A DNA stretch of 10,433 nucleotides from a virus (lineage: Duplodnaviria > Heunggongvirae > Uroviricota > Caudoviricetes), in IMG/VR virus record IMGVR_UViG_2698536657_000012, positions 1 through 10,433 of that record, one strand, 5' to 3'. Below the pieces are notes generated by a model. It had not been told where the DNA came from and did no database searches. It worked only from the letters and a program-made list of their open reading frames with translations. Both the position numbers and the translations under genes were made by a program. This document shows, piece after piece, positions 1-10,433 of this stretch. Numbering within the stretch: the stretch's first letter is position 1; the number at the start of each line of letters is the position of its first letter.

Positions 1-6
1 GCATGC

Positions 7-252
7 TTACATCATCATGTCGCTGTCGGGTGTGGGTTCACCGCCATCTGAAGCACTCCCGTCACCCGCAATGCCTTCCGGCTCCGGAACAGCCGGTGCG
101 CCCAGCAGTTCATCCAGAATGGCATCCACTTCTGCATCAAGACGCGACTCAAGGTTCTGGCGGAGTTTCTGTTTCAGTGCGCTCAGGACTTCTTCAGAGC
201 GCAGGACTTCCTTCAATGCTTCAGCAGTGACCAGGGGTTTTACTTCTGACAT
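7..252 (-). CDS. Hypothetical small acidic protein, 82 aa from the ATG at 250-252 (MSEVKPLVTAEALKEV...); the ORF-track ORF extends to 414 but has no better start
   Basis: Complete ORF with TAA stop at 7-9; helix-like, non-repetitive composition, unlike the S/R-rich overlapping plus-strand ORFs; weak SD (GAGAAAA). Function not recognised. Confidence 0.4.
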   Translation of the reverse strand: MSEVKPLVTAEALKEVLRSEEVLSALKQKLRQNLESRLDAEVDAILDELLGAPAVPEPEGIAGDGSASDGGEPTPDSDMMM

Positions 253-277
253 AGGATTTTCTCGCTGAAAGGGGTTA

Positions 278-460
278 TTAAGGAGTAATGGGCTCTTCGG
301 GTTTGCTTCCGGCTGACTGACTGGCGCTGATTTTCTCTGCGGCCCTTTTATCAATCTGCCTGCGCCAGAAATCGCGCACTGCCCTGTACCCACCTGAAAG
401 AAGATACAGCACACAGACCGCCGTACAGAAGTACAGCATCACCTGATGAATAAATATCAT
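278..460 (-). CDS. Small predicted membrane protein, 60 aa: one N-terminal hydrophobic helix (IFIHQVMLYFCTAVCVLYLL) and a charged C-terminal tail
   Basis: ATG at 458-460, TAA stop at 278-280; strongly hydrophobic N-terminus followed by a basic/acidic tail; lies directly downstream of nanS-p in the same orientation. Confidence 0.4.
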   Translation of the reverse strand: MIFIHQVMLYFCTAVCVLYLLSGGYRAVRDFWRRQIDKRAAEKISASQSAGSKPEEPITP

Positions 461-478
461 AATTTCTTACCGTTATGG

Positions 479-508
479 TTGACAATGAGAACTGTTTTCA
501 TTTAAAAA
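479..508 (+). promoter_or_regulatory. Candidate sigma70 promoter on the plus strand: perfect -35 TTGACA (479-484), A/T-rich -10 region (TTTAAAAA, about 501-508)
   Basis: Consensus -35 hexamer with a 16-18 nt spacer to a weak -10; would start a plus-strand transcript about 80 nt upstream of the terminator at 558-594. Confidence 0.3.
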
Positions 509-557
509 ACCAATGTACGAAAGCATCTTTTCTTTATTTTCTCCATGGGTATTACCA

Positions 558-594
558 CCGCCAGCTTCCATTCCTGCCGCTGGCGGCTTTTTTT
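558..594 (+). terminator. Intrinsic-terminator-like hairpin (CCGCCAGC ... GCTGGCGG) followed by T7 on the plus strand
   Basis: 8-bp GC-rich stem with a ~13-nt loop, then TTTTTTT on the plus strand; on the minus strand it is preceded by A7 and not followed by a U-tract. It sits just 3' of the nanS-p stop codon (600-602). Confidence 0.5.
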
Positions 595-599
595 AGCAA

Positions 600-2558
600 T
601 TATGCGGCTGCTCCAGCTTTGTTTGCTTTAACTTCCACCGTATCAATAAGTACAGGGTAAGTTTCAGCAGTACCTGTAATATCCGTAATGACAAACCTGT
701 TGAGTTCATTAGCAGTATTGGCCCATTTCACCAGGTCAAACGCCTGTCCATCCACGCCATCAAACACCGGAGTAACATTAATGCTGTTACTGCCCTTAAA
801 TTTAAATGCAAGCGTATGCCAGTCATGGTCGAATGCGCCAAACGTGCCAAGTTCTTTTTGTTGATTACCTGTATGATGGTATGCAACATCAATACTGGCT
901 TTATCTGTCTGGACAAAGAAAGAACTCAGATAGCCTTCACCACCCTCACCCGGCCATTCCGCTATTCGCCAGTACAAACCAAAGGCATACTTGTTTCTGG
1001 TTGTTTCAAGATTGACGTTTTCAGGGATTTTAAACCGGACAGCAATTTCCCCGCCTTTTTCCAGTAACAGTTTTGCCTTGTCTGCAGCAATATCACAGTA
1101 CATTGACCAGGATTTCGCGCTGTTATTTTTCTCAATTCGCAGAGCTTTATTGCCGCTGTCATCAACCAGTGTGCGTCTGCCATCCATACCGTCCCAGCCA
1201 TAAGGTTTCAGCTGATTGTCCGAAGCTTTTTTGGCATCGTAGAGAATGACAGACTCCGAAGTGGCAACCGTATTTTCTTCATTATGAGCTTCAGAAGCTG
1301 GCGATGAAGAAGATGTTGGCGCCTCTTCCGGTGCTGTTACTTCTGTAATACCATTCACAAAGGCAGATGATTTACCTGCATAGGTTACAATTGCTGTTGC
1401 CAGTCGATCCGAAACGATACCTCGACGAGCCCATGAGCTAAAATGGCTATCTCTGTACTGTGACGTCCATGTTGTTGAACTATCACGCCATCTGGAGCCA
1501 TAATATCCAATAGCTTCAATATCCGGGTCTTCCTCGGGCTTATTGGTTGTAACATTTGCATTATTTTCATCCGTCATAAACGGAACAAAATAAATAGCCT
1601 TATCCGTTTTCCCTTTGTAACCACCGTACACAACTTCATATTGAGACGCGTATTTGGTTTTCCAGTAATACGTGGTATCGCCGCAAATCCAGGGGACTTT
1701 CGCAGCACTACCATATACGCATTGAGCATCATATTTCTCTAACTCAGTGCGGAAACCTTCAACCATTTTCAGGAAAAGTGCATTGTGTTCTGCATGTTTT
1801 CCGGCAGCCATATCTGCCTCACCCTGCATCCAGACAACGCCAAGAAATACGTTCTTTTTGTTTTTGTCTAATGCAGCTTTGGTTCTGGCAACCAGATCTT
1901 TATATAGAGGTGTCCCAAGCCCCCATTTTGATGATGCGTCGATTGCGCCAGAGGCTTCATAATACTGTCCTTCTGTTCCGGTACTAAAGCCTGATCCGCC
2001 ACGTCCACAAGGGACCAGCAGAATACCTGCATTAGCAGGGATAAATGGCAGTAGTTTCTTACCAATATGCAAACCCTGGCCAACACAACCGTATTCTGCA
2101 TCTTTAGCTTTGGGGTGTTTTAGCCTGGTCATATCTTCAACATCATGAAGACAATGGTCTGCCGGAATGATGTCGTTATATTTACAGGGAGTACCTCCCG
2201 GTGTCACCGTACTGCGACGCGCCAGCTGCTTAATACGCGGGTCCGGACGGTCATATGTCTCCGGCAGCGGAAGGCCTTCACCATATGCCATGCTGTTTGA
2301 CTGGCCAGCCAGCGTAATCACGTAGTAATACTCCGGGTCGCTGGTGGCGCTGATAACTGTGCCTTCTCCATCCGACGGCTTCACCACCACAGGTGTGGTG
2401 ACATCACCTTCCGCCGCAATGGCCTGCATCAGGGTATAAGGCGTGATGGCCACCGGGCTGCCAAATGGCTGCCACCCCTCCTTCAGTTTTTGAGTCAGTC
2501 GCTCCGCAAGGTCTGACGGCGACGCCGCCCTGACCACGTCATAGTGTTTAAATGCCAT
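600..2558 (-). CDS. nanS-p: Prophage-encoded sialate (9-O-acetyl-Neu5Ac) O-acetylesterase NanS-p: N-terminal DUF1737-like region, SGNH/SASA esterase core with GQSN motif, C-terminal carbohydrate-binding-like region
   Basis: 652-aa ORF with ATG at 2556-2558 and strong SD (GGGAGG); ITLAGQSNSMAYGEG esterase motif; N-terminus MAFKHYDVV typical of the family; position downstream of the tRNA/toxin locus as in Stx prophages. Confidence 0.88.
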   Translation of the reverse strand: MAFKHYDVVRAASPSDLAERLTQKLKEGWQPFGSPVAITPYTLMQAIAAEGDVTTPVVVKPSDGEGTVISATSDPEYYYVITLAGQSNSMAYGEGLPLPETYDRPDPRIKQLARRSTVTPGGTPCKYNDIIPADHCLHDVEDMTRLKHPKAKDAEYGCVGQGLHIGKKLLPFIPANAGILLVPCGRGGSGFSTGTEGQYYEASGAIDASSKWGLGTPLYKDLVARTKAALDKNKKNVFLGVVWMQGEADMAAGKHAEHNALFLKMVEGFRTELEKYDAQCVYGSAAKVPWICGDTTYYWKTKYASQYEVVYGGYKGKTDKAIYFVPFMTDENNANVTTNKPEEDPDIEAIGYYGSRWRDSSTTWTSQYRDSHFSSWARRGIVSDRLATAIVTYAGKSSAFVNGITEVTAPEEAPTSSSSPASEAHNEENTVATSESVILYDAKKASDNQLKPYGWDGMDGRRTLVDDSGNKALRIEKNNSAKSWSMYCDIAADKAKLLLEKGGEIAVRFKIPENVNLETTRNKYAFGLYWRIAEWPGEGGEGYLSSFFVQTDKASIDVAYHHTGNQQKELGTFGAFDHDWHTLAFKFKGSNSINVTPVFDGVDGQAFDLVKWANTANELNRFVITDITGTAETYPVLIDTVEVKANKAGAAA

Positions 2559-2755
2559 GAATCCTCCCGGTCGGGATAATGTTGTGAGTCAGATAAGGGG
2601 CGGGCTGAAGTCCGGAAGTTACAGGACAATGACAGAAGGAAGACTACAGCCCGCAATACGAAAAAGGCCGCGCAGTTGCGCAGAGTGATTACTGTCGGGT
2701 ATTATTCGCCAGCTGAAAAATTGATTACTTCACGTTTTGTTGTTTATTCCTTGCT

Positions 2756-2784
2756 GCCCGCATCTCACCATGCGGGCTTTTTTT
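2756..2784 (+). terminator. Plus-strand intrinsic terminator: GCCCGCAT-ctcacc-ATGCGGGC followed by TTTTTTT
   Basis: Perfect 8-bp stem, 6-nt loop, T7 run immediately 3' on the plus strand. Confidence 0.5.
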
Positions 2785-2788
2785 ATCC

Positions 2789-2815
2789 ATAAGAAAGCCC
2801 CTCCGGAGAGGGGCT
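2789..2815 (-). terminator. Minus-strand intrinsic terminator T1: AGCCCCTC-(4-nt loop)-GAGGGGCT followed by UUCUUAU; marks the end of repeat copy 1
   Basis: Perfect 8-bp GC-rich stem; U-rich tract only on the minus strand. Confidence 0.5.
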
Positions 2816-3045
2816 GGAGTAGCGCTATGTACCGTTCATTGCATGATGCCGGGTGCCTCCCGGTGAGTTCAGCCCGGTGCCACCGAACCCGCGTCATTCT
2901 CGCTAACGATCATCAGAGACCATACCGTACACCAGCCGCCCCTCCGCACAGGGGGATTCATCATGCAGAAATTTTTTAACAAATTCTCAGTCGGGAAGAC
3001 AACCTTCAACTGACTGAATTGTGAGCAACATAGCATTTAACGGGG
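2796..3045. repeat. Copy 1 of a tandemly duplicated ~250-nt structured non-coding element (period ~487 bp)
   Basis: Shares with copy 2: AAAGCCCCTCCGGAGAGGGGCTG (23/23); TGCCGGGTGCCTCCCGGTGAGTTCAG (26/26); GAACCCGC; GCCCCTCCGC(A/T)CAGGGGGATTCA(T/C)CATGC; TTTTAACAAA; CTGAATTGTGAG ... CGGGG. The same order and spacing are preserved. Confidence 0.7.
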
Positions 3046-3059
3046 AACCTGTTTTCTGC

Positions 3060-3090
3060 AGTAAAAAGGCCCACCGGAGCGGACGGGCCT
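3060..3090 (-). terminator. Minus-strand terminator-like hairpin (AGGCCC ... GGGCCT) followed by UUUUUAC
   Basis: 6-bp outer stem plus inner CCG/CGG pairs; T5 on the minus strand; lies in the spacer between the two repeat copies. Confidence 0.35.
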
Positions 3091-3275
3091 GGAAGGATAG
3101 CGGTCATGTGATGCCGGTTTCCCGGTAACTCAGCACCGGTATCTGAGTCAACGTTTTCTCTACTGGGTCATTTCCGATACGCCCTGCCTGCTGACAGGCT
3201 TTCATCACATCTGAAAATATAGCACCCTGACTGATACTGTAGTACCCAAGGTTCCAGAAACTGTGATGTATCCGG

Positions 3276-3303
3276 CACAGAAAAGCCCCTCCGGAGAGGG
3301 GCT
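3276..3303 (-). terminator. Minus-strand intrinsic terminator T2: same AGCCCCTC/GAGGGGCT hairpin as T1, followed by UUUUCUGUG; marks the end of repeat copy 2
   Basis: Identical 8-bp stem to copy 1; U-rich tract on the minus strand only. Confidence 0.5.
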
Positions 3304-3530
3304 GACGCTGCGTATCTGTATCATCATGCGCATGGTGCCGGGTGCCTCCCGGTGAGTTCAGTATCAGCACCTGAACCCGCACAGAAAGGATAAGGGATGT
3401 AACCAAACACCTGTCGCTGATATGCCCCTCCGCTCAGGGGGATTCACCATGCCAGTTTCTTTTAACAAACTCCCCGCAAATCAGACAACTGTCAACCGTC
3501 TGAATTGTGAGACATTTAAAATTTTCGGGG
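3284..3530. repeat. Copy 2 of the tandemly duplicated ~250-nt structured non-coding element
   Basis: See copy 1; conserved blocks are identical in order and offset by 486-489 nt; intervening sequence has diverged. Confidence 0.7.
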
Positions 3531-3581
3531 CAACAGGAAGACAATCATCACGACACCGGCAACCAGCGACCGGCACCAGAT

Positions 3582-4517
3582 TTAACGTATGTGCACACAA
3601 CCTGAACCGGCATCAAAAAACAAACCGTGCACTGACAGAAAACGGGAAACCTCCGTCCGCTGATCATCACTCATTAAGGACCACACAAAGGCGTTATGCT
3701 CATCTTCAAGTTTCCGTCTTCTTGTTTGCCTTACAAGCAACTCAGCCGTCACCTGTACAATGTCAATGACCTCCTTCTCTTCAGCAATGTACGGCCTGTT
3801 CCAGTTGTCTGTGTTAATCTTCTCCGTCACCGGCGCTGACTTTTTGCAAGTTTCCCCATTAAACCCGACGCCATAAACAACAACATCATCGCTTTGCTTT
3901 TCGTTATCAATAATGACGAATAATACAGAAACCGATGTATCAGCGAACCCGCCTGAAATCTGAACCAACTCAACAACGCGGTTGCCAAAATACTGACGCA
4001 TTGCCAGCTCACCACGCCTGTAACCAACCCCGGGAAAGCACAAAAAAAATGAAAATCTTGCCTTCATGCTCGCCAGAACATAAAACGCGTCATCCAGAAC
4101 ACCGGAGGTCTTTTTATAAGGCATCATCGCTGAAATCTTCTCCCTGATATCCGCGCTCTGTGCTTTGTACTGTAGCGAAAAAGGCGGATTCATGATGACA
4201 CAATCGAACGTGTCCGTGTCACTGACATCATCGATGGCGTTGAAGAAATTTTCATTGACCGTCTTCACTGTGGCATCCGGGAAATTATCCGGGATATGCA
4301 CCAACGGAGAGGCCTGTATATCCACAGCATACAGACTTCCCACCGTGAGAAACTGCTCCAGTTGCCCGGAGCCACACGCACCATCAAAAATACTCAGGGG
4401 CAGATCACCACAATATTCCCGCACTTTTTCAGCGACAAACCGACGCAAAGGAACGGACGTGATGTACTCTGCGTATTTTCTGGCGACATCGCGATTATTG
4501 GACTCCTGAAAAACCAT
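3582..4517 (-). CDS. Putative orphan gamma-class N6-adenine (amino) DNA methyltransferase-like protein (311 aa from ATG at 4517; 331 aa if the GTG at 4577 is used)
   Basis: Motif I FDGACGSGQL followed about 65 aa later by motif IV NPPF (order I then IV = gamma class); no adjacent restriction gene; neither candidate start has a clear SD. Target (DNA versus RNA) cannot be told from sequence alone. Confidence 0.6.
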   Translation of the reverse strand: MVFQESNNRDVARKYAEYITSVPLRRFVAEKVREYCGDLPLSIFDGACGSGQLEQFLTVGSLYAVDIQASPLVHIPDNFPDATVKTVNENFFNAIDDVSDTDTFDCVIMNPPFSLQYKAQSADIREKISAMMPYKKTSGVLDDAFYVLASMKARFSFFLCFPGVGYRRGELAMRQYFGNRVVELVQISGGFADTSVSVLFVIIDNEKQSDDVVVYGVGFNGETCKKSAPVTEKINTDNWNRPYIAEEKEVIDIVQVTAELLVRQTRRRKLEDEHNAFVWSLMSDDQRTEVSRFLSVHGLFFDAGSGCVHIR

Positions 4518-4602
4518 TTGTGAAAGGCTCTGTGGTTGATATGCGCCGGGCGTGGCGCGGAGGCAAAAAAGGCCCACAAAAGCGAGCCAGGAAAAATAAG
4601 TG

Positions 4603-4679
4603 TGGTGCGTTGTACTGGATTCGAACCCGTGACCGATTGCTTAGAAGGCAATTGCTCTGTCCGGCTGAGCTAACAACGC
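4603..4679 (-). tRNA. argO: tRNA-Arg (anticodon UCU)
   Basis: 77 nt; acceptor stem GCGTTGT/ACAACGC, discriminator A and encoded CCA; D-arm GCTC...GAGC; anticodon loop CTTCTAA; T-loop TTCGAAT. Gene symbol assigned from the ileZ-argN-argO order known in Stx prophages. Confidence 0.85.
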
Positions 4680-4692
4680 AGTGTACAGATAA

Positions 4693-4769
4693 TGGACCGC
4701 CATCGAGGACTCGAACCCCGCGCAACCAGCTTCGAAGGCTGGCGCTCTATCCCGATGAGCTAATGGCGG
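4693..4769 (-). tRNA. argN: tRNA-Arg (anticodon UCG)
   Basis: 77 nt; acceptor CCGCCAT/ATGGCGG with encoded CCA; anticodon stem CCAGC/GCTGG with loop CTTCGAA; T-arm CGGGG-TTCGAGT-CCTCG. Confidence 0.8.
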
Positions 4770-4776
4770 TATGTGA

Positions 4777-4852
4777 TGGTGGCCCTTGCTGGATTTGAAC
4801 CAGCGACCTGGCGATTATGAGTCGCTCGCTCTCACCACTGAGCTAAAGGGCC
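4777..4852 (-). tRNA. ileZ: tRNA with CAU anticodon, ileX-like (tRNA-Ile2, lysidine type) rather than Met
   Basis: 76 nt; GGCCCTT acceptor stem, anticodon loop CTCATAA, T-loop TTCAAAT, encoded CCA; overall close to E. coli ileX as recalled from memory. Confidence 0.8.
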
Positions 4853-4861
4853 GGGCGCAGG

Positions 4862-4890
4862 ATAATAACGGTACGTAACTAATCCTGCAA
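4862..4890 (-). promoter_or_regulatory. Candidate sigma70 promoter for the tRNA cluster: -35 TTGCAG, 17-nt spacer, -10 TATTAT, about 8 nt upstream of the tRNA-Ile 5' end
   Basis: Read on the minus strand: TTGCAGgattagttacgtaccgtTATTATcctgcgcc followed by the tRNA; -10 matches 5/6. Confidence 0.45.
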
Positions 4891-4892
4891 TA

Positions 4893-5951
4893 TCATCCGT
4901 TCTGACTGGCTAAATCCTGAACTTCCCTGACCGTCTGCTCAAAACGTTCAGTCTCCAGCTCAACGCCAGTTGCACGACGCCCCAGCGCCATCGCTGCTTT
5001 GACTGTCGAACCCGACCCCATGAAAAAATCTGCAACCAGGTCACCCGGACGACTGCTCGCGCTGATTATCTGCTGCAGCATTTCTGCCGGTTTTTCGCAC
5101 GGATGTTTCCCGGGATAGTACTGCACCGGTTTATGCGTCCACACATCGGTGTACGGCACCTGCGCCGTCACACCGAAATACCGCCGCAGATGCTTATATT
5201 CACTCTGCAGTTCCGTATAGTGTCGGTTCAGTTCACTGTATGTGCTGACCAGTTGGTGATGTGGCTTTTCCAGTTCTCCGCGCTGATGCTTCTCTTCTGC
5301 CACCCGGGCAAACAGCGCCTGTAATTTCAGATAATCGCTTTCGTCCGGTAGCTGCCACTGACTGGCACTGAACCAGTGCGACACCATGTTTTTCTTTCCT
5401 GTGGCATCAGCAATCTGTTTTGCCGTTATCCCCAGGGCAGCACGTGCATCACGAAAGTAAGCAATCAGCGGGGCCATCACATGCTGTTTCAGTGCCCTGC
5501 CCTTCGCCTCATACCCGGCATCTTTCGGACGATACGGCCCCTGATAATGTTCCGCGAACAGAATGCGCTCTGTGGCGGGGAAATACGCCCTCAGGCTTTC
5601 CTTGTTGCACCCGTTCCAGCGTCCGGACGGCTTCGCCCAGATAATATGGTTCAGCACACTGAAGCGTTCACGCATCATGATTTCAATGTCAGATGCCAGG
5701 CGATGGCCACAGAACAGGTAAAGACTTCCGGCAGGTTTCAGCACCCGCCAGAACTGCGCCAGACACTGGTCCAGCCACTTCAGGTAATCATCGTCGCCCT
5801 TCCACTGGTTATCCCAGCCCTCAGGCTTCACTTTAAAGTACGGCGGGTCCGTGACTATCAGGTCAACAGAATTTTCGGGTAACGACCGGATAAATTCCAG
5901 GCAGTCGGCGTTGATTAACTCACAACTGGATATTTTTACAGTATTAAGCAT
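4893..5951 (-). CDS. DNA methyltransferase, beta-class N6-adenine/N4-cytosine family (PF01555-like), 352 aa
   Basis: N-terminal motif IV (SVDLIVTDPPYF) and C-terminal motif I (DFFMGSGSTVKAA): the order IV then I is the beta-class hallmark. No adjacent endonuclease ORF. Confidence 0.88.
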   Translation of the reverse strand: MLNTVKISSCELINADCLEFIRSLPENSVDLIVTDPPYFKVKPEGWDNQWKGDDDYLKWLDQCLAQFWRVLKPAGSLYLFCGHRLASDIEIMMRERFSVLNHIIWAKPSGRWNGCNKESLRAYFPATERILFAEHYQGPYRPKDAGYEAKGRALKQHVMAPLIAYFRDARAALGITAKQIADATGKKNMVSHWFSASQWQLPDESDYLKLQALFARVAEEKHQRGELEKPHHQLVSTYSELNRHYTELQSEYKHLRRYFGVTAQVPYTDVWTHKPVQYYPGKHPCEKPAEMLQQIISASSRPGDLVADFFMGSGSTVKAAMALGRRATGVELETERFEQTVREVQDLASQNG

Positions 5952-6084
5952 GGATCATTAAGCCTGTCTCTGATAGGCTCATTCTGCTTTTGCGCAAAGC
6001 AGTGGGCCTGAGGTTTGCTTGTGATCCGGACGCATGAGCAGATGGCTGGTGAGTGCCCCTAACACCCACCAGCCGCCCATTTAC

Positions 6085-6115
6085 CACAAATAAAAAAGCC
6101 TTCAGGACTGAAGGC
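6085..6115 (-). terminator. Minus-strand intrinsic terminator: GCCTTCA-GGAC-TGAAGGC followed by UUUUUUAUUUG; overlaps the stop codon of the wHTH ORF
   Basis: 7-8 bp stem and a long U-tract on the minus strand. Confidence 0.55.
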
Positions 6116-6299
6116 GTCTGTAACAACCGAACTGATAGTCTGCCAGACCCGCCATAACAAGCTGGGTCAGTATTAACTGGCAGCGTTCACGTGAAAGATA
6201 AGTATTCTGCGCAATCTCCCCGACTGTCGCCGGTTCGGTGGCACTTAATTCATTAAACACCACTCTGGCGGTTTCTGTCATATCCTGCTGTTTCAGCAT
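6102..6299 (-). CDS. Small (about 65 aa) winged-helix/HTH-like protein, putative DNA-binding regulator (MLKQQDMTETARVVFNELSATEPATVGEIAQNTYLSRERCQLILTQLVMAGL...)
   Basis: ORF-track ORF 6102-6335 has a TTG at its 5' end; the first ATG has an SD (AAGGGAAAAAG). The TVGEIAQ...LSRERCQLILTQL segment looks like an HTH recognition unit. Family not identified. Confidence 0.5.
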   Translation of the reverse strand: MLKQQDMTETARVVFNELSATEPATVGEIAQNTYLSRERCQLILTQLVMAGLADYQFGCYRRLQS

Positions 6300-6420
6300 G
6301 TCTTTTTCCCTTTTCCGGTTAACGTGACACACCAATAACTCTTGTCAAAAAAGCCAGCAAGCTGAAAGACCGGTATTCACCACCACCAGCGCGTTTACTG
6401 TACTGACGAGATTTTCGGAC

Positions 6421-6451
6421 ATAAAAAAAACCACCTGGCGGTGGTTTTTTC
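6421..6451 (-). terminator. Strong intrinsic terminator, tR'-like: CCACC-GCCA-GGTGG followed by U8 on the minus strand (flanked by A8 and T6, so the hairpin is bidirectional)
   Basis: Perfect GC-rich stem with long A/T runs on both sides; located about 60-70 nt downstream of the candidate late promoter. Confidence 0.7.
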
Positions 6452-6493
6452 TTACTTTGCCATCGCGTACAAAATCGGCAAAATATCAGATTT

Positions 6494-6528
6494 ATACGAA
6501 ACATACGCGATTTAATTGACTTTTGCAA
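6494..6528 (-). promoter_or_regulatory. Candidate late promoter (pR'-like): -35 TTGCAA, 17-nt spacer, -10 TATGTT, read on the minus strand; overlaps the last codons of the Q-like ORF
   Basis: Hexamers each 4/6 to consensus with ideal spacing; position relative to the upstream ORF and the downstream terminator fits the lambdoid Q-pR'-tR' layout. Confidence 0.4.
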
Positions 6529-7201
6529 TATCTCGTCGTGAAAAGGTCGCTTTTTGTTGCGCTCTTATTTTCACGGAGCAAATCAAGGATTCTCTATCGA
6601 GGCGCTTAAAAATATCGCACATCTCACGCCAGTAGTTCGCATAATTATGGCTCCAGTTATCAGGCTTAACTCCACACAGTCTGGCAAGCTCCTGTCTCTG
6701 GTAGACCTCACACCCGGTAACCCATCCTCTGACATCCTGTGCCGCCAGCCAGATCAACTTCTTCACACGCTCCAGCGTTTTCACTGCAATTTTTCTGGAG
6801 CCGGACTGAGTTTTAAATTCACTCCACACCCACTGTGTTATGGTGACCTGATCTTCCCAGCAAACATTTCCACTGTAGCACCACAGTAACCACGCCTTCT
6901 GATGTTCTTCCAGTTCCAGAACGGCACGCCGCCACGATGATGTTGCAAACTCAACCGGACTGACCAGAGCAATTGACGTCCCTTTCGCCAGTGATTGTTT
7001 GCCCGGGATCGGTGGATTATCCCGCGTGATCATTTTTCCGGTTACCTCATCGCGGTAACGAATTTTTTTACGTCTGTAACGCCCTGTATCGAACAGGGCA
7101 TTTTCCTGCCAGGCTTCCAGCTGGCCTTTTGTCGACCCACTGAGATCCGCAGTGGCAATCATGAGTTGCTCACGAACAAACTGTAAATACTGGCTATTCA
7201 T
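6512..7201 (-). CDS. Q-like late antiterminator candidate, 229 aa from ATG at 7199-7201 (functional call is positional only)
   Basis: The ORF itself is solid; its start overlaps the rusA stop (ATGAATAG). It lies between rusA and the pR'/tR'-like module, where lambdoid phages encode Q, but no lambda-type Cys4 zinc motif was recognised; a Roi-like or other nin-region protein is possible. Confidence 0.55.
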   Translation of the reverse strand: MNSQYLQFVREQLMIATADLSGSTKGQLEAWQENALFDTGRYRRKKIRYRDEVTGKMITRDNPPIPGKQSLAKGTSIALVSPVEFATSSWRRAVLELEEHQKAWLLWCYSGNVCWEDQVTITQWVWSEFKTQSGSRKIAVKTLERVKKLIWLAAQDVRGWVTGCEVYQRQELARLCGVKPDNWSHNYANYWREMCDIFKRLDRESLICSVKIRAQQKATFSRRDIAKVN

Positions 7202-7556
7202 GCACACCCACCTCTGTAATTCTTATCTCCAGCCGTCCACCAGATACTGGCTGGCCACGTACAATATTGATTTCATCAAACTGCTCATCGTCCATTAACA
7301 TTCCCGCATGCGTCAGCGCATCCAGCGGCGCTTTCAGAATATTGTCCAGGTCACGACGACGCTTATCCGGTGGCTCTGCAATAATTTTTATTGCCAGCCG
7401 TCCGGACAGTCTTAATTTCAGCCGCTGCTGGCGAACAATAAGCGCCACTGCACGGCGATAACGCTCCCCGGCTTTTGATACAAAATATGTGCTGCCACGG
7501 CGTCGCCAGTAAGTGTTCACCGTCGGCGGGTAAGGTAAAACCAAATCTATGAGCAT
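7194..7556 (-). CDS. rusA: Holliday-junction resolvase RusA (crossover junction endodeoxyribonuclease), 120 aa
   Basis: ATG with strong SD (AGAGGTGA); conserved RusA blocks (PPDKRRRDLDNILKAPLDALTHAGMLMDDEQ... GGRLEIRITE) match E. coli RusA as recalled from memory. Confidence 0.88.
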   Translation of the reverse strand: MLIDLVLPYPPTVNTYWRRRGSTYFVSKAGERYRRAVALIVRQQRLKLRLSGRLAIKIIAEPPDKRRRDLDNILKAPLDALTHAGMLMDDEQFDEINIVRGQPVSGGRLEIRITEVGVHE

Positions 7557-7568
7557 CAGTCACCTCTT

Positions 7569-8618
7569 TTACCCGAGCACGCCAGTCGCAAAGGCGTGAT
7601 CAAGAAAACGAAAAATTAACTCAATCTGAGAGCCGTACTTTTTCTCAAACTCCAGCGGGTCTGCATGAAGTTCGTTGTGGTGCTCCCGGCACAACGGTAG
7701 CGTGAAAATATCGTGGGCCTTTGTTCCCATTCCCCCCTGACCATGGCCAATCAGGTGATGCGGATCGTCGGCTGGCTTACCACAACACGCGCACGGCTGT
7801 GTCTTAACCCAGCGCGTGTATTTCTCATTAACCCAACGGCGACGTTTAGGCCGCCTCATGAACGATTCAGGAGACTCCGGATCAACGGCGATACTGACAA
7901 CCGTTTTTTTCTGTGGTGGATTTTGTTGCTGGTGGACGTGAAGTGGCAGCGCAATATTTTTTGTGCGCTGCTTCAGTATGCTGATGGCTGTCTGTTCTCC
8001 CGGTACGATGTCACTCTCACGGTATACGGAGCGGATTTTTCCCACCGGTAATCCCAGTGAACGACGCAATACAGACTCCGGAAGCGCATCAGCCACCTGA
8101 TTGCAGACCGCCCACCAGCATAACTCTGCCAGCGACAGTTCCCGCTCCTGTGTGCCATTCATTGCGTGACGTATGACATCAATCATCCAGGCTGCCAGAT
8201 TCTGCTGAGCAAGTTGATCGAGTGATTCTGATGTCTGGTCGCGCTGCTGGTTGTCACAGTGCCAGCACAACACCATCGCGCCGGTACCGTAACGGTGAAT
8301 GACGGTTTCGCTGTGATGATAATCGCCATGTGGCCACTGGCAGGATTTCACGTGACGTAATAACCAGTCAGACAGTGCACCTGCACCCCCCGCAGCACGA
8401 ATCACCCGTTCGTTGCTGAAAAATGGCAGTAATGTTTTATCCTCTGCCAGCGACTGTCGAACGGCGGGAACGACTCCGGACGGCAGACCGCGCATGTTTT
8501 TCGGTTCCGGCTCCACCAGTATTCTGCCGTTATGGAATGCTGACATTGATTCACGGCCCGGCTTTAGGAGCACCATCCCGAGTTCTGGCACCAGAACAGG
8601 TCGAAGTAATACCCGCAC
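7569..8618 (-). CDS. DUF968-family prophage protein (YdfU-like), 349 aa, with a C-terminal Cys/His-rich HNH/NinG-like motif
   Basis: GTG start preceded by a perfect SD (GGAGGtaacGTG) that overlaps the upstream ORF's TAA stop; C-terminus PCACCGKPADDPHHLIGHGQGG...LCREHHNELHAD. Confidence 0.75.
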   Translation of the reverse strand: MRVLLRPVLVPELGMVLLKPGRESMSAFHNGRILVEPEPKNMRGLPSGVVPAVRQSLAEDKTLLPFFSNERVIRAAGGAGALSDWLLRHVKSCQWPHGDYHHSETVIHRYGTGAMVLCWHCDNQQRDQTSESLDQLAQQNLAAWMIDVIRHAMNGTQERELSLAELCWWAVCNQVADALPESVLRRSLGLPVGKIRSVYRESDIVPGEQTAISILKQRTKNIALPLHVHQQQNPPQKKTVVSIAVDPESPESFMRRPKRRRWVNEKYTRWVKTQPCACCGKPADDPHHLIGHGQGGMGTKAHDIFTLPLCREHHNELHADPLEFEKKYGSQIELIFRFLDHAFATGVLG

Positions 8619-8619
8619 G

Positions 8620-8898
8620 TTACCTCCAGATGCGCTGCTGGAATGTGCGGGACGGACGCGGTGGGCGTTCGGAATAAGGGAGCCTGACGGAGATTATCCA
8701 GTGGCGACGGTCAAGACTGAGAGCTTTCTCAAACTCATACCCGCGTCTGCGGTAGTTCTGAATCAACCATTCGGCCTGTTCTTCAGTGCATGGGGCATGC
8801 TGGAACCAGTCAGATTTGAATGCATGAGAACGCCGCCCGTGCCTGCTGGCAGGGGCGGCGAAGTTATCCGAATTGTGTAATTTTGTATCGTGCGCCAT
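8620..8898 (-). CDS. Hypothetical nin-region protein, 92 aa from ATG at 8896-8898 (ORF-track version starts at a TTG at 8979)
   Basis: Its stop is translationally coupled to the DUF968 gene start. No motif recognised; positionally comparable to the small genes next to ydfU in Qin-like prophages. Confidence 0.45.
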   Translation of the reverse strand: MAHDTKLHNSDNFAAPASRHGRRSHAFKSDWFQHAPCTEEQAEWLIQNYRRRGYEFEKALSLDRRHWIISVRLPYSERPPRPSRTFQQRIWR

Positions 8899-8978
8899 CG
8901 GTTGTCTCTGCTGGCGCAGCAGGTGCCAGTTGTTCAGGCTGGCGTGCGGATTGTAAACCAGAATACGGGGGTAACACA

Positions 8979-8998
8979 AAGCCCGCCTCTGTGGGCTT
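8979..8998. other. GC-rich hairpin (AAGCCC-8 nt-GGGCTT) between the hicAB operon and the nin-region genes; possible weak terminator
   Basis: 6-bp stem; flanks are only moderately T-rich on either strand; coincides with the compositional boundary of the AT-rich moron. Confidence 0.3.
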
Positions 8999-9003
8999 GA
9001 TTA

Positions 9004-9438
9004 TTAAGCCGAGCCCGGCACATACCAAGGGAAATAAATATCACTTAACGACGTGTGTTTGAGAACAGAGTCCACCGCCAATTTCAACGTCAACGACATG
9101 AAATTCTCAAAATACCATGAATTTTCTACAAAGAACTTTTCATCGATCGCCCCTCCATTAATGATATCAAAGTCCGTAATCAGCTCCATCTTTAACTCAA
9201 AAGATGGTTCTTCATCACCGACAGGCTCTCCCTCTCTATCAGGATACCCTTTTATCGATGGCGAAAACCCAATCCGAAACCAACTGGTACCATCATCATC
9301 ACGCCCCGAAGCAAATTTAAGTTCCTCAATCGAGACCTTAAAAAAACCTCCATCATCACTAGTGTTATCCCTGAAACTACTGGAAACTATATCGAAACCA
9401 GCATACTTAATATTTTTTAACATCAGTGACGTATCCAT
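9004..9438 (-). CDS. Hypothetical acidic protein, 144 aa, third gene of the hicA-hicB operon
   Basis: ATG at 9436-9438 lies 16 nt upstream of the hicB stop (overlapping genes); SD-like GAGG about 10 nt upstream; D/E-rich; AT-rich codon usage like hicAB. No recognisable domain. Confidence 0.6.
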   Translation of the reverse strand: MDTSLMLKNIKYAGFDIVSSSFRDNTSDDGGFFKVSIEELKFASGRDDDGTSWFRIGFSPSIKGYPDREGEPVGDEEPSFELKMELITDFDIINGGAIDEKFFVENSWYFENFMSLTLKLAVDSVLKHTSLSDIYFPWYVPGSA

Positions 9439-9899
9439 CGCTCACTAACCTCTTTCCTTTTTGTTCTTACTGAAGATGGAACAACATAATTAAGAAGAAA
9501 TACGCCATCCCAAACAAGTGTATCTGCCGTTTCTTTATTTTCGGGATGAGAATGAACTTCTTTTTTACCTGCAATCTTTTCTTCAATGGCTTTACGCACA
9601 TAATCATTAAGCGTCGTCTTATCCATCATTGCAGCCAAAAACGCTTTCTTATGAAGATCGCGACCTATTCTGATGTTAAAAGTACCACTCATTGGTTTAT
9701 CAGGAGATTTACCCAACTGCTTGCATGTATCGAGGTAATCTGTAACAGCCTCTTCAAAAGCTGCCCTTAACCCATCCAGTGTTTCCGCTTCGTAGGTTAC
9801 AACATCGTTTACACACTGAATTTTCCCATGAAGTATGTTATCTTCAAGAGAAATCTCAATGCTACCAAAATAACCTTTATAACTCAGCACATTACTCAT
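9423..9899 (-). CDS. hicB: HicB-family antitoxin (COG4226-like N-terminal domain fused to a C-terminal ribbon-helix-helix-like DNA-binding segment), 158 aa from ATG at 9897-9899
   Basis: YKGYFGSIE...EDNILHGKI...YEAETLDGLRAAFEEAVTDYLDTCKQLGK..P.KP.SGTFNIRIGRDLHKKA matches the conserved HicB pattern as recalled from memory; its ATG overlaps the hicA stop (ATGAGTAA). Confidence 0.78.
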   Translation of the reverse strand: MSNVLSYKGYFGSIEISLEDNILHGKIQCVNDVVTYEAETLDGLRAAFEEAVTDYLDTCKQLGKSPDKPMSGTFNIRIGRDLHKKAFLAAMMDKTTLNDYVRKAIEEKIAGKKEVHSHPENKETADTLVWDGVFLLNYVVPSSVRTKRKEVSERWIRH

Positions 9900-10140
9900 A
9901 ACTATCAATCTCATCCAAAAGATTTTTCACTTCTTTAAGCACATATCCTTTAACAATATTGCCAGGATGTGGGCAATGAAAAGCCACAAGCCTTCCATTA
10001 CCATTGGCAAACTTCCTTCTTGAGCCTGAGCCGGTAAGCATTTCGAAACCATAATGCCCAAGCAACGTCACGAGTTCATCCCATGTAAAATCCTTTGGAA
10101 GCTGATTCAGACGCCCCCTCAACTTCTCTTTTTTGCTCAT
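9892..10140 (-). CDS. hicA: HicA-family mRNA-interferase toxin (YcfA-like), 82 aa
   Basis: Small basic protein, WDELVTLLGHYGFEM...GSGSRRKF...FHCPHPGNIVKGYVLKEV, consistent with the HicA fold motif; located immediately upstream of and overlapping hicB in the canonical toxin-first order. Confidence 0.75.
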   Translation of the reverse strand: MSKKEKLRGRLNQLPKDFTWDELVTLLGHYGFEMLTGSGSRRKFANGNGRLVAFHCPHPGNIVKGYVLKEVKNLLDEIDSYE

Positions 10141-10168
10141 TTAAAGTATATCCCTTCCCCCACCAATA

Positions 10169-10187
10169 GCAACTAATAATCAGTTGC
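10169..10187. promoter_or_regulatory. Inverted repeat GCAACT-n7-AGTTGC upstream of hicA; candidate operator for the RHH-type HicB
   Basis: Perfect 6-bp arms separated by 7 nt, about 30 nt upstream of the hicA start, within an A/T-rich putative promoter region. Confidence 0.4.
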
Positions 10188-10433
10188 AAACTCAGCGCGA
10201 TAAAGAAGCATAAGAATCCTGCACCTAATACATAACTTAAGAAAACACGTGTGAGCATGAAAATGCTACAATAATGTTTAAATCACTTACCAGTAAGGTT
10301 AAGTGCGGGTGCGTTGAGGATGCCTGACACATCAGAGGTAGCGGGAGATTACTCTCCCGCCTGGTCACTCTTACTCATCAGGTTCGTAGACTGTGAAAAC
10401 AGCGACCTCCGTCTGGCCGGTTCGGATTCGTAC

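Follow-up and report, generated by a model that had tools for sequence, protein, structure and literature searches.

A tandem array of three predicted STnc100-family small RNA genes upstream of nanS-p in a prophage late operon

Organization of the locus

The window analysed here is a stretch of 10,433 nt from a virus of the Caudoviricetes (IMG/VR record IMGVR_UViG_2698536657_000012, positions 1 to 10,433). In this window, a 1,023-nt gap between a methyltransferase gene and nanS-p contains three units arranged head-to-tail on the minus strand (Table 1). This is the insertion site between the antiterminator Q gene/tRNAs and nanS-p, within the Q-dependent late operon. RefSeq has no gene inside the gap, and in the best records the only overlap with the matches is the flanking methyltransferase gene. 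Judged from its sequence, the element is a tandem array of three putative prophage small RNA (sRNA) genes of the STnc100 family, which is already catalogued (EcOnc27/sRNA103, with PasD related to it). The three-unit array is also found in other prophages.

An earlier note on this DNA had described a pair of structured copies of about 250 nt with a period of about 487 bp. All the blocks that it listed are present on the minus (late-operon) strand with a spacing of 486–489 nt, and the two outer copies stand. The count does not: a third, diverged unit at about 3210-3062 (-) was overlooked, and therefore the true period is about 245 nt, not 487. Likewise, the core of each copy is structured as claimed, while its outer ~60 nt (TTTTAACAAA and CTGAATTGTGAG) are promoter-like or upstream sequence outside the conserved structured core.

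Table 1. Features of the array and its convergent neighbor (positions in the window)
Feature	Position	Strand	Basis or detail
Distal unit, putative STnc100-family sRNA gene (second copy of the earlier note)	3275..3481	-	coordinates of Rfam match
Distal promoter-like site	3459..3488	-	-35 TTGTCT 3483-3488, spacer 17-18 nt, -10 TAAAAG 3459-3464
Distal structured 5′ domain	3330..3452	-	MFE fold and covariation
Distal P1	3445-3452 with 3330-3337		
Distal P2	3425-3440		
Distal pseudoknot arms	3415-3422 and 3362-3369		
Distal P4	3371-3378 with 3354-3361		
Distal P5	3338-3352		
Distal linker, candidate seed	3304-3329	-	unpaired in fold
Distal terminator stem, then UUUUCU	3284-3303	-	terminator scan
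Middle unit, diverged third paralogue	3062..3224	-	
Middle extended -10 TGcTATATT	3216-3224	-	
Middle 5′ domain	3106-3210	-	
Middle P1	3203-3210 with 3106-3113		
Middle P2	3186-3199		
Middle pseudoknot arms	3174-3179 and 3134-3139		
Middle P4	3143-3149 with 3127-3133		
Middle P5	3114-3125		
Middle linker GACCGCUAUCCUUCC, candidate seed	3091-3105	-	unpaired in fold
Middle terminator, then U5	3067-3090	-	
Proximal unit, putative STnc100-family sRNA gene (first copy of the earlier note)	2785..2995	-	coordinates of Rfam match
Proximal promoter-like site	2973..3002	-	-35 TTGTCT 2997-3002, 18-nt spacer, extended -10 TGtTAAAAA (hexamer 2973-2978)
Proximal 5′ domain	2841..2966	-	
Proximal P1	2959-2966 with 2841-2848		
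Proximal P2	2939-2954		
Proximal pseudoknot arms	2929-2935 and 2874-2880		
Proximal P4	2883-2890 with 2865-2872		
Proximal P5	2849-2863		
Proximal linker, candidate seed	2816-2840	-	
Proximal terminator stem, then UUUCUU	2796-2815	-	linker-to-tail span 2790..2840
Conserved upstream block CTCACAATTCAG	3014..3025	-	distal counterpart 3500-3511
Terminator hairpin AGCCCCTC/GAGGGGCT, two copies	2796-2815 and 3284-3303		
26-nt identical block with CCGGG-tgcct-CCCGG	2847-2872 and 3336-3361		
Hairpin CCCCT..AGGGG, two copies	2939-2954 and 3425-3440		
Block TTTTAACAAA, two copies	2974-2983 and 3460-3469		
Block CTGAATTGTGAG, two copies	3014-3025 and 3500-3511		
Convergent sRNA candidate facing the proximal unit	2660..2785	+	terminator 2756-2777 plus T7

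Family membership of the units

Both outer units match Rfam STnc100 (RF02076) over the complete model (1-206), with scores of 168 bits (E = 9.1e-39) for the proximal and 134.9 bits (E = 2.7e-30) for the distal unit in cmscan, and both exceed the curated gathering score of 47 bits. The proposal that the copies are phage small RNAs is thus supported by strong membership, and the family, which the earlier note did not name, is a curated one. The similarity of the outer copies is far beyond chance, with repeat pairs of 32 nt at 97% identity and of 111 nt at 72% in a repeat search.

The middle unit scores 28.5 bits on the STnc100 model (E = 0.0046), below the gathering threshold, and this paralogue is therefore missed at standard Rfam thresholds. 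A covariance model built without the middle unit (R1) gives it 39.3 bits (E ~9e-8), and gives the 5′ domains of the distal and proximal units 125.7 and 108.2 bits. Because of this R1 score and of the architecture that it shares with the outer units, homology of the middle unit is supported, and it is best called a putative diverged STnc100 relative, as is PasD, for which the STnc100 model gives only 41.4 bits. Of 5426 complete E. coli genomes, 673 carry the middle unit, and none of the 12 records listed among these carriers has an annotated feature at it. As the re-discovery of a curated RNA family, the finding adds little in itself; its novelty is low except for the pseudoknot described below and the unannotated middle paralogue.

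The 16-mer GCATGRTGAATCCYCC supplied a useful set of loci when viral contigs were scanned. In genome contigs, the matches listed for the same 16-mer included chance ones in unrelated phyla only, and these loci were left unused. The motif CGCATGGTGA and a terminator resembling that of PasD had raised the suspicion of a fourth unit in 2560-2785, which was rejected as no 5′ domain was detected there by HMM or covariance model. This segment holds instead the convergent plus-strand RNA candidate and one extra terminator-like hairpin.

The 5′ domain and its pseudoknot

The minimum-free-energy fold of the distal unit recovers P1, P2, P4, P5 and the terminator, and that of the middle unit yields the same architecture. 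Each unit has a 5′ domain of about 105–125 nt supported by compensatory changes, including those in the pseudoknot. Sliding the partners lowers the share of cells that pair from 96% to at most 45.6% in 53 homologous domains, and from 98% to at most 49% in 57 distinct rows. In the latter set, double changes are found at five pairs of P1, four pairs of P2 and all eight pairs of P4. Within the array, P1 differs between the proximal and distal units by a compensatory G-C to A-U change (GCAUGAUG/CAUCAUGC vs. GCAUGGUG/CACCAUGC). The consensus helices of RF02076 are kept, namely the closing helix, CCCCU/AGGGG, GGGUUCAG/CUGAACUC, CCGGG/CCCGG and the terminator, with compensatory changes in P1, P2 and P4. 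These changes across homologues support the hairpins and the selective retention of structured blocks that the earlier note had suggested.

The pseudoknot pairs the loop of P4 with the strand following P2. In the 53 domains, its columns are occupied by AU:34/CG:17, CG:27/GC:17/UA:8 and AU:25/GC:22. Six to nine contiguous pairs are possible in 34 of the 35 distinct strand/loop combinations, which represent about 10 different sequence solutions, and shuffled loops give a mean of 4.2 pairs. As loop cores are common to several classes, a cross-class control was poorly defined, and the shuffled-loop control and the column counts are relied on here. The Rfam consensus line in the cmscan output lacks the pseudoknot, and the 2026 preprint on this family (10.64898/2026.05.13.724894) makes no mention of a pseudoknotted scaffold. 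The pseudoknot provides a concrete structural hypothesis for the STnc100 family.

Promoter-like sites, terminators and predicted RNA ends

A set of 72 distinct upstream sequences shows conserved -35 and -10 hexamers at a conserved spacing, with a variable spacer sequence. The distal promoter-like site stops 6–7 nt ahead of GCAUGGUG. RpoD binding patterns have been reported for the promoter regions of Salmonella STnc100 (PMC10794520). Most upstream sequences of the STnc100 type retain the block CTCACAATTCAG. It would be an upstream promoter/regulatory element or, alternatively, mark where a longer RNA form (about 240 nt) begins.

The position of the 5′ end is ambiguous. PasD2, whose promoter geometry is that of the array units, is a 172-nt RNA with its 5′ end at CGCAUGG as defined by RNA-seq/Northern analysis. 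The promoter geometry and PasD predict an RNA of about 175 nt here. On the other hand, EcOnc27 gives Northern bands of about 235/247 nt (PMC4104026), a size that would place the 5′ end near the CTCACAATTCAG block in the Stx2a phage locus (L243). The probe published for “EcOnc13” has no match to the Sakai EcOnc13/PasD locus and matches the promoter-like region of another STnc100-type unit, which adds to the uncertainty about this end.

Three intrinsic terminators lie on the minus strand, and the region has eight terminator-like sites vs. 1.1 expected. The terminator scan agrees with the earlier claim that each outer copy ends in a hairpin plus U-tract. The C that interrupts two of the U-tails (UUUCUU and UUUUCU) makes them sub-optimal for binding by Hfq, and the unpaired linkers are present in the fold.

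Comparison with known sRNAs

The outer units share with STnc100/EcOnc27/sRNA103 the helices, a terminator of the AGCCCCUCUCCGGAGGGGCU type and their place immediately upstream of nanS-p, at the late-operon insertion site of a lambdoid prophage. The array differs in having three tandem units, whereas the Stx2a phage compared has one, EcOnc27, after stx2B at the equivalent position. Moreover, the upstream gene here is a methyltransferase gene instead of stx2AB, and the linkers are unlike the EcOnc27 probe region. With PasD1/PasD2 of EPEC E2348/69 (EcOnc13 in Sakai Sp3), the array shares the 5′ start GCAUGGUGAAUCC, the P1/P2/pseudoknot/P4 layout and the promoter geometry (TTGACT-18-TAAAAA in PasD); PasD2 also lies directly upstream of a sialate esterase gene. 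However, the PasD linker with the seed UGUGAG and the PasD terminator GGCUGCGCAUUGCGCAGCC are absent from the window, P5 is reduced in PasD, and the PasD probe sequence was not found in the window at up to five mismatches.

OmrA/OmrB, PrrF1/PrrF2 and Qrr1-5 are neighboring duplicated sRNA genes of core genomes with largely shared seeds. Like them, the array combines a shared scaffold with divergence elsewhere; unlike them, it shares the structured 5′ scaffold and its candidate seeds differ. The preprint cites these three groups, states that Pas copies are non-tandem, and already links PasD to STnc100 (10.64898/2026.05.13.724894).

Proposed mode of action and alternatives

We consider it likely that the array encodes three small RNAs, each transcribed independently, associated with Hfq and acting in trans through a seed of its own. 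Our own analysis provides the family membership, the architecture, the covariation and the genomic context; Hfq binding, discrete transcripts and trans targets are taken from the literature on homologues; and we infer the identity of the seed, the role of the scaffold and the read-through. Each gene would be a transcription unit with its own sigma-70-type promoter. The first nucleotides of each RNA would be locked into P1, the closing helix of a compact 5′ domain that would enclose the invariant hairpins P2 and P5, the covarying hairpin P4 and the pseudoknot. This domain, most likely a stabilizing scaffold, would be followed by a single-stranded linker of 15–26 nt, different in each of the three units, and by an intrinsic terminator with a U-tail. 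In a lysogen, each of the three RNAs would start from a promoter of its own, stop at its own terminator and associate with Hfq via the terminator/U-tail module. Their linkers may then base-pair with mRNAs of the host and the prophage, so that one common scaffold would carry three specificities. Upon induction, polymerase modified by Q would run from the late promoter through each of the three terminators and on into nanS-p and the lysis genes.

The variable linker is the probable seed in this model. A signature of this kind is seen in two natural variants of the middle unit, of which the second has stems altered with compensation and an identical linker and -10. As for the homologues, EcOnc27/sRNA103 is crosslinked to Hfq, Northern-positive and destabilized without hfq (PMC4104026, PMC7873438), PasD1/PasD2 are high in interaction number among RIL-seq sRNA candidates (PMC8550237), and EDL933 expresses eleven STnc100 copies (PMC5331693). 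No STnc100 member has a validated direct target, the effects on fimZ/espA coming from overexpression only (PMC7873438). RNA-seq shows no reduction of PasD1/PasD2 abundance in an hfq mutant (log2 fold changes of +0.55 and -0.18), and Hfq dependence may therefore differ between members.

It is improbable that the array acts in cis as a barrier or leader, in which the lysogen has nanS-p and the lysis genes silenced by the terminator stack until antitermination by Q, the RNAs being by-products or a nanS-p leader. Four minus-strand terminator-like hairpins, from 3303 to 2668, do lie immediately upstream of nanS-p within the Q-dependent late operon. A barrier needs terminators only, however, and the covarying pseudoknotted 5′ domains, the promoter geometry and the conserved linkers are left unexplained, so the structured leader once offered as an alternative to small RNAs is not favored. 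Besides, relatives are abundant discrete RNAs, and the family also occurs without nanS-p downstream, as indicated by the Fels-1 neighbors of Salmonella STnc100. The Sakai Sp3 locus (L244) has no esterase gene: next after its PasD-type unit comes a hypothetical ORF on the minus strand, and after that ORF the holin gene essQ.

Quite improbable, too, is a protein-binding or decoy RNA, whose functional part would be the pseudoknotted 5′ domain binding or sequestering a protein or other factor, the linker being secondary. The sequences of P2 and P5 do not vary among STnc100-type units, which may point to a partner that recognizes a specific sequence and not to a passive scaffold, while P1, P4 and the pseudoknot covary. 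Also in favor of this reading are the hfq-independent abundance of PasD, the motif GGGAGG displayed by P5 and ribosome footprints on several EDL933 STnc100 copies, with ribosomal coverage values up to 3.2 (PMC5331693). Against this, the middle unit and PasD alter or lose the P2/P5 sequences with the fold kept, PasD pairs with many mRNAs via its linker seed UGUGAG in RIL-seq, and the protein-binding and riboswitch families of Rfam have no match in the region.

Very improbable is a small-protein or dual-function gene starting at the conserved AUG of the RNA 5′ end (GC-AUG-GUG-AAU-CCC-CCU...): despite that AUG, the footprints on some EDL933 copies (PMC5331693) and the 55-aa and 100-aa ORFs over the region, the ORF varies from 7 to 73 aa in 97 distinct units with only its first nine residues in common (MVNPPxRRG, exactly the nucleotide-conserved P1/P2 region), the ORFs in the window are unlike in length and sequence, Pfam matches none of them, and the variation is that of compensatory base pairing, not of synonymous change. 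Protein coding was thus rejected, in line with the non-coding nature claimed earlier. A riboswitch or type III antitoxin array was also rejected: Rfam gives no match, each unit has a terminator of its own and measures about 245 nt instead of ~36 nt, and an esterase gene follows downstream.

Returning to trans-acting sRNAs, a broader and tentative possibility is that STnc100, PasD and the middle-type unit form a modular superfamily, in which an H-type pseudoknotted 5′ scaffold with a dedicated function would be joined to interchangeable seed-plus-terminator modules and tandem arrays would be a phage means of delivering several seeds together. If so, the scaffold may serve, e.g., as a nuclease-resistant cap or as a specific protein platform.

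Candidate convergent partner and variants of EcOnc27

The proximal unit faces the plus-strand terminator-bearing candidate 3′ end to 3′ end. This layout matches the “dyad” arrangement known from lambdoid prophages (PMC4104026), and the AsxR/AgvB dyads (Tree et al., 2014) occupy the same prophage position. The plus-strand partner here is, however, not of the AsxR/AgvB type. RF02703/RF02702 have no match in the whole window at E <=1 or in 2560-2830 at E <=10, and neither the AsxR sequence nor its conserved 3′ 42 nt (..CTCATGC..TTGCCCGAACCCACTCGGGC) was found in the window. PasA, sought downstream of nanS-p, was not found either. What the plus-strand partner does match is the Northern probe published for EcOnc08/21/42, on the minus strand at 2672-2706 and with three mismatches. 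Region 2731-2785 resembles by eye the EPEC RIL-seq candidate E2348C_1409.E2348C_1408.IGR, which a scan at up to eight mismatches did not recover.

The STnc100 family is of clinical relevance via EcOnc27, variants of which have been reported as predictors of haemolytic uraemic syndrome (PMC12711010). In our coordinate mapping, these variants lie in or beside the -10 and start region of the unit, which suggests altered expression rather than altered target pairing.

STnc100 membership and a third unit

The Rfam 15 scan that the earlier note had proposed as a check matched STnc100 (RF02076, "Gammaproteobacterial sRNA STnc100"; gathering score 47 bits) full-length twice on the minus strand, and places the element, for which that note had named no RNA family, in a curated one. 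Rfam has listed STnc100 for a long time, and work on it covers EHEC, EPEC, and Salmonella. The small-RNA gene reading was correct, and the feature is real but already known; what remains of value is an unannotated middle paralogue, a recurrent three-unit array, and a covariation-supported pseudoknot. STnc100 is a multi-copy prophage small RNA, with eleven copies expressed in EDL933 and one confirmed by Northern blot (PMC5331693). The copy directly 3′ of stx2B is, or partly overlaps, the Hfq-crosslinked EcOnc27 (sRNA103 in EDL933), which gives Northern bands of ~235/247 nt and is destabilized without hfq (PMC4104026; PMC7873438; PMC12711010). On structural grounds, a 2026 preprint ties the family to PasD1/PasD2, EPEC small RNAs known from RIL-seq (10.64898/2026.05.13.724894) and encoded directly upstream of a sialate esterase gene (10.64898/2026.05.13.724894; PMC8550237). 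In Salmonella LT2, RpoD and RpoN ChIP-exo binding patterns are found at STnc100 promoter regions (PMC10794520).

Direct reading located every repeated block that had been described, with 486–489 nt between the paired blocks of the two outer copies, and the minus-strand ends of both copies are indeed terminator-like hairpins with a U-tract (eight terminator-like sites in the region, against 1.1 expected from shuffles). The array is not a duplicated pair, however. Between the outer copies lies a weak Rfam STnc100 match, and R1, a covariance model of the 5′ domain built from 35 homologues with the middle-unit sequence left out and searched over the window with filters off, matched exactly three places, the next best score being 11.8 bits. 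Folded on its own, the middle unit adopts the same architecture as the outer units; since it also has its own strong terminator and extended −10, three units make up the repeat, whose period is ~245 nt, and the ~487 nt given earlier measures only how far apart the two similar outer ones lie. The middle unit occurs in two natural variants, which differ from each other by compensated changes (in P2, pseudoknot, and terminator) and have identical linker and −10.

Features of the array and its surroundings (window coordinates)
Feature	Position	Strand	Remark
Proximal unit, STnc100 match	2995-2785	-	168 bits, E = 9e-39
Middle unit, STnc100 match	3234-3061	-	28.5 bits, E = 0.0046
Distal unit, STnc100 match	3481-3275	-	134.9 bits, E = 3e-30
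Proximal 5′ domain, R1 match	2966-2841	-	108.2 bits
Middle 5′ domain, R1 match	3210-3106	-	39.3 bits, E about 9e-8
Distal 5′ domain, R1 match	3452-3330	-	125.7 bits
8-bp G+C hairpin (terminator)	2796-2815; 3284-3303		outer copies
Identical 26-nt block with CCGGG/CCCGG hairpin	2847-2872; 3336-3361		outer copies
CCCCT/AGGGG hairpin (P2)	2939-2954; 3425-3440		outer copies
Block TTTTAACAAA	2974-2983; 3460-3469		outer copies
Block CTGAATTGTGAG	3014-3025; 3500-3511		outer copies
Pseudoknot arms, proximal	2929-2935 with 2874-2880	-	
Pseudoknot arms, middle	3174-3179 with 3134-3139	-	
Pseudoknot arms, distal	3415-3422 with 3362-3369	-	
Middle-unit terminator	3090-3067	-	then U5; terminator scan
Middle-unit extended −10	3216-3224	-	TGcTATATT
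Methyltransferase ORF	3582-4577	-	331 aa
Three tRNA genes	4603-4852	-	
Plus-strand candidate	2660-2785	+	
Its terminator	2756-2777	+	then T7
Fourth terminator-like hairpin	2668-2683	-	CTGCGCAACTGCGCGG, then CCTTTTT
Esr41-like match	519-594	+	26 bits

Structure of the 5′ domain

The 5′ domain of ~105–125 nt is closed by helix P1 (GCAUGRUG with CAYCAUGC), inside which are hairpin P2 (CCCCU/AGGGG), a variable insert, P4 (GGGUUCAG/CUGAACUC), and P5 (CCGGG/CCCGG); an unpaired linker and then the terminator follow on the 3′ side. Homologues were collected from IMG/VR by the motif GCATGRTGAATCCYCC (120 loci, 98 distinct 275-nt units), and the helices covary, as the earlier note had wished to see examined. 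In a MAFFT alignment of 53 domains, which is independent of the model, standard pairing is seen in 96.0% of cells and in no more than 45.6% once the 3′ partners are slid by 1–3 columns. The covariation score of 0.222, which none of 500 shuffles reaches, likewise falls to 0.045 or less on sliding. A model-based alignment of 57 distinct rows, which takes in PasD-type and middle-type units and leans towards the structure to which it is fitted, gives 98.0% against at most 49.3%, with two-sided changes at five P1 pairs, four P2 pairs, and all eight P4 pairs; P5 never covaries. Within the window, the P1 helices of the outer copies differ by a G-C to A-U exchange, and that of the middle unit is AUGUGAUG/CAUCACAU.

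Furthermore, RNAalifold on the MAFFT alignment proposes pairing between the strand directly after P2 and the P4 loop, which is absent from the consensus line of Rfam STnc100; a covariance model cannot encode a pseudoknot. Its four core columns in the 53 domains read AU:34/CG:17; UA:21/UG:20/AU:8; CG:27/GC:17/UA:8; and AU:25/GC:22/CG:2. Scored sequence by sequence, 34 of 35 distinct strand/loop combinations form 6–9 contiguous pairs, whereas shuffled loops average 4.2 and reach six or more in about 11% of trials. About ten different solutions occur, such as AUCAGC/GCUGAU, CUGGUG/CACCGG, UAAUGAC/GUCAUUG, UAUCAGUAC/GUACUGAUA, ACUGAUUAG/UUAAUCAGU, CUGGCU/AGCCAG, UCUGGC/GCCAGG, and CUGGCAAG/UUUGCCAG, with AAUGAUCG/UGAUCAUU in PasD and UAUCGG with CCGGUG or CCGAUG in the middle type, and the pairing is kept in all three window units. 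Because P4 covaries too, both helices form, making an H-type pseudoknot; by our geometric reasoning, such a fold with a two-nucleotide bridge across the deep groove is sterically plausible. The family preprint does not mention it (10.64898/2026.05.13.724894).

P2 and the terminator of the outer units use the same arms, CCCCU/AGGGG, and in the minimum-free-energy structure calculated for the proximal unit they pair with each other, so that neither hairpin forms. This could be an alternative conformer or an artefact of the folding program.

Promoter-like sites and RNA length

In 72 distinct sequences upstream of GCAUGRUG, a −35-like TTGNCT, a spacing of 17–18 nt, and a −10-like TAAAAA, usually after TG and ending 6–7 nt before the G of GCAUGRUG, are kept, while the spacer sequence is wholly different between classes. 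Conserved hexamers at fixed spacing around a free spacer are a hallmark of promoters, and the site looks like one; block TTTTAACAAA is its −10 region. The site of PasD2 is laid out alike (TTGACT-18-TAAAAA); RNA-seq coverage and Northern blot put the start of its 172-nt RNA at CGCAUGG (PMC8550237). Geometry and PasD together would indicate RNAs of ~175 nt for the outer units and ~150 nt for the middle one. The ~240 nt predicted earlier agrees instead with the EcOnc27 bands, which a start near the conserved CTCACAATTCAG block would fit, and both forms may be present.

After stx2B, two variants are reported to predict haemolytic uraemic syndrome, one a T/C SNP (+90) and the other the deletion of a T (+103) (Paganini et al., PMC12711010). 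By coordinate count, in which the numbering could be 1–2 nt off, they map to about 2908–2922 of L243, an Stx2a phage locus (window 2967–2981 and 3453–3467), in the TG-extended −10 and the short segment that separates it from GCAUGG; this would suggest that they affect how strong the promoter is or where transcription starts, not pairing.

Linkers and proposed mode of action

Among the IMG/VR homologues, the 5′ domain is shared but is followed by any of at least four distinct linker-plus-terminator modules, including the STnc100 (AGCCCCUCUCCGGAGGGGCU), PasD (GGCUGCGCAUGGCGCGGCC), and EcOnc27 (GGCCUCUCAUAGCAGGGGCC) types and further ones. The three window linkers are mutually unrelated (AAUGAACGGUACAUAGCGCUACUCC; GACCGCUAUCCUUCC; GCAUGAUGAUACAGAUACGCAGCGUC). 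Pairing seeds typically show up as single-stranded sequence that is conserved while the stems around it drift, and we infer such seeds here; CCUUCC in the middle-unit linker may be anti-Shine-Dalgarno-like. The PasD seed derived from RIL-seq, UGUGAG, is found in the corresponding linker (PMC8550237).

The layout is gene-like, and the window probably encodes three independently transcribed small RNAs that, together with Hfq, would base-pair in trans through three different linkers; discrete transcripts and Hfq binding are expected by analogy with the homologues. The pseudoknotted domain would be the 5′ scaffold of each RNA, plausibly stabilizing it, since its 5′ end is buried in P1. An hfq mutation does not reduce the abundance of PasD (PMC8550237). 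After induction, Q-modified polymerase would read through the array.

It is conceivable that the 5′ domain acts as a protein decoy, in line with the sequence invariance of P2 and P5 and with reported ribosome footprints, but both hairpins are altered in the middle unit and PasD. If the array were purely a cis-acting terminator barrier or a nanS-p leader, the conserved domains, promoter-like sites, and linkers would be left unexplained; the family is also found away from nanS-p. Protein coding is rejected: ORFs from the conserved AUG span 7–73 aa and share only nine residues, which coincide with P1/P2, and no Pfam family matches ORFs of the region.

Genomic context of the array

E. coli chromosomes, for example FHI_NMBU_11, contain the window at 100% identity; there, antiterminator Q, a methylase, tRNA-Ile/Arg/Arg, and a SAM-dependent methyltransferase are followed on this strand by a 1,023-nt gap without annotation and then by a SASA-family esterase (nanS-p), DUF1378, DUF826, and holin. 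The Stx2a phage has the same frame, with stx2AB where the window has the methyltransferase; stx2B is followed by one STnc100 unit only (159 bits). The array locus is an insertion ("moron") site 3′ of the late promoter. Flanked by the tRNA trio on one side and the STnc100 unit(s) on the other, the ORF of the SAM-dependent DNA methyltransferase takes the exact place of stx2AB in Stx2 phages (L243 3011–4251), which as read from sequence shows cargo exchange at the site. ARAGORN calls the tRNAs Met-CAT, Arg-TCG, and Arg-TCT, the CAT one being tRNA-Ile in RefSeq; this trio is typical of Stx-like phage late regions.

A 1,041-nt query was matched in part or whole in 2,732 of 5,426 complete E. coli genomes, at up to nine places per genome; at least 80% of the whole gap is present in 353 and the middle unit in 673. 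The outer/middle/outer trio occurs in about ten IMG/VR loci with spacings of 209–265 nt, and four units in one, so the array is recurrent and not peculiar to the window. Because Pas copies are described as distal rather than tandem (10.64898/2026.05.13.724894), the tandem arrangement of this branch may so far be undescribed. In the four-unit locus, a prophage contig (L006 2326–3350, minus strand), one unit is fully compensated in P1, P4, and pseudoknot (AUAUGGCG/CGCCAUAU; ACUGAUUAG/UUAAUCAGU), and another has a nested 8-bp hairpin in place of the pseudoknot.

Neighboring RNA candidates

A plus-strand small-RNA candidate converges on the proximal unit and ends at a terminator facing it; convergent small-RNA "dyads" have been described at the late-promoter insertion site (Tree et al., PMC4104026). 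Tree et al. published a Northern probe for EcOnc08/21/42 that matches 2672–2706 with three mismatches. An AsxR/AgvB type is rejected, the Rfam models of both being without a match. By eye, 2731–2785 resembles the EPEC RIL-seq candidate E2348C_1409.E2348C_1408.IGR, which a mismatch scan did not find; the plus-strand element also follows STnc100 in the Stx2a phage (L243 2655–2722). On the minus strand, ~110 nt before nanS-p starts, a fourth terminator-like hairpin resembles PasD-type terminators; the Stx2a phage has it too (L243, about 2606–2628). No 5′ domain precedes it. It may be what is left of a 3′ module, may add to the barrier, or may form the 5′ hairpin of the plus-strand RNA. The Esr41-like match, weak against a gathering score of 102 and to which PasA does not align, is downstream of nanS-p and antisense to the late operon, a position occupied by PasA/PasC-type small RNAs in other prophages.
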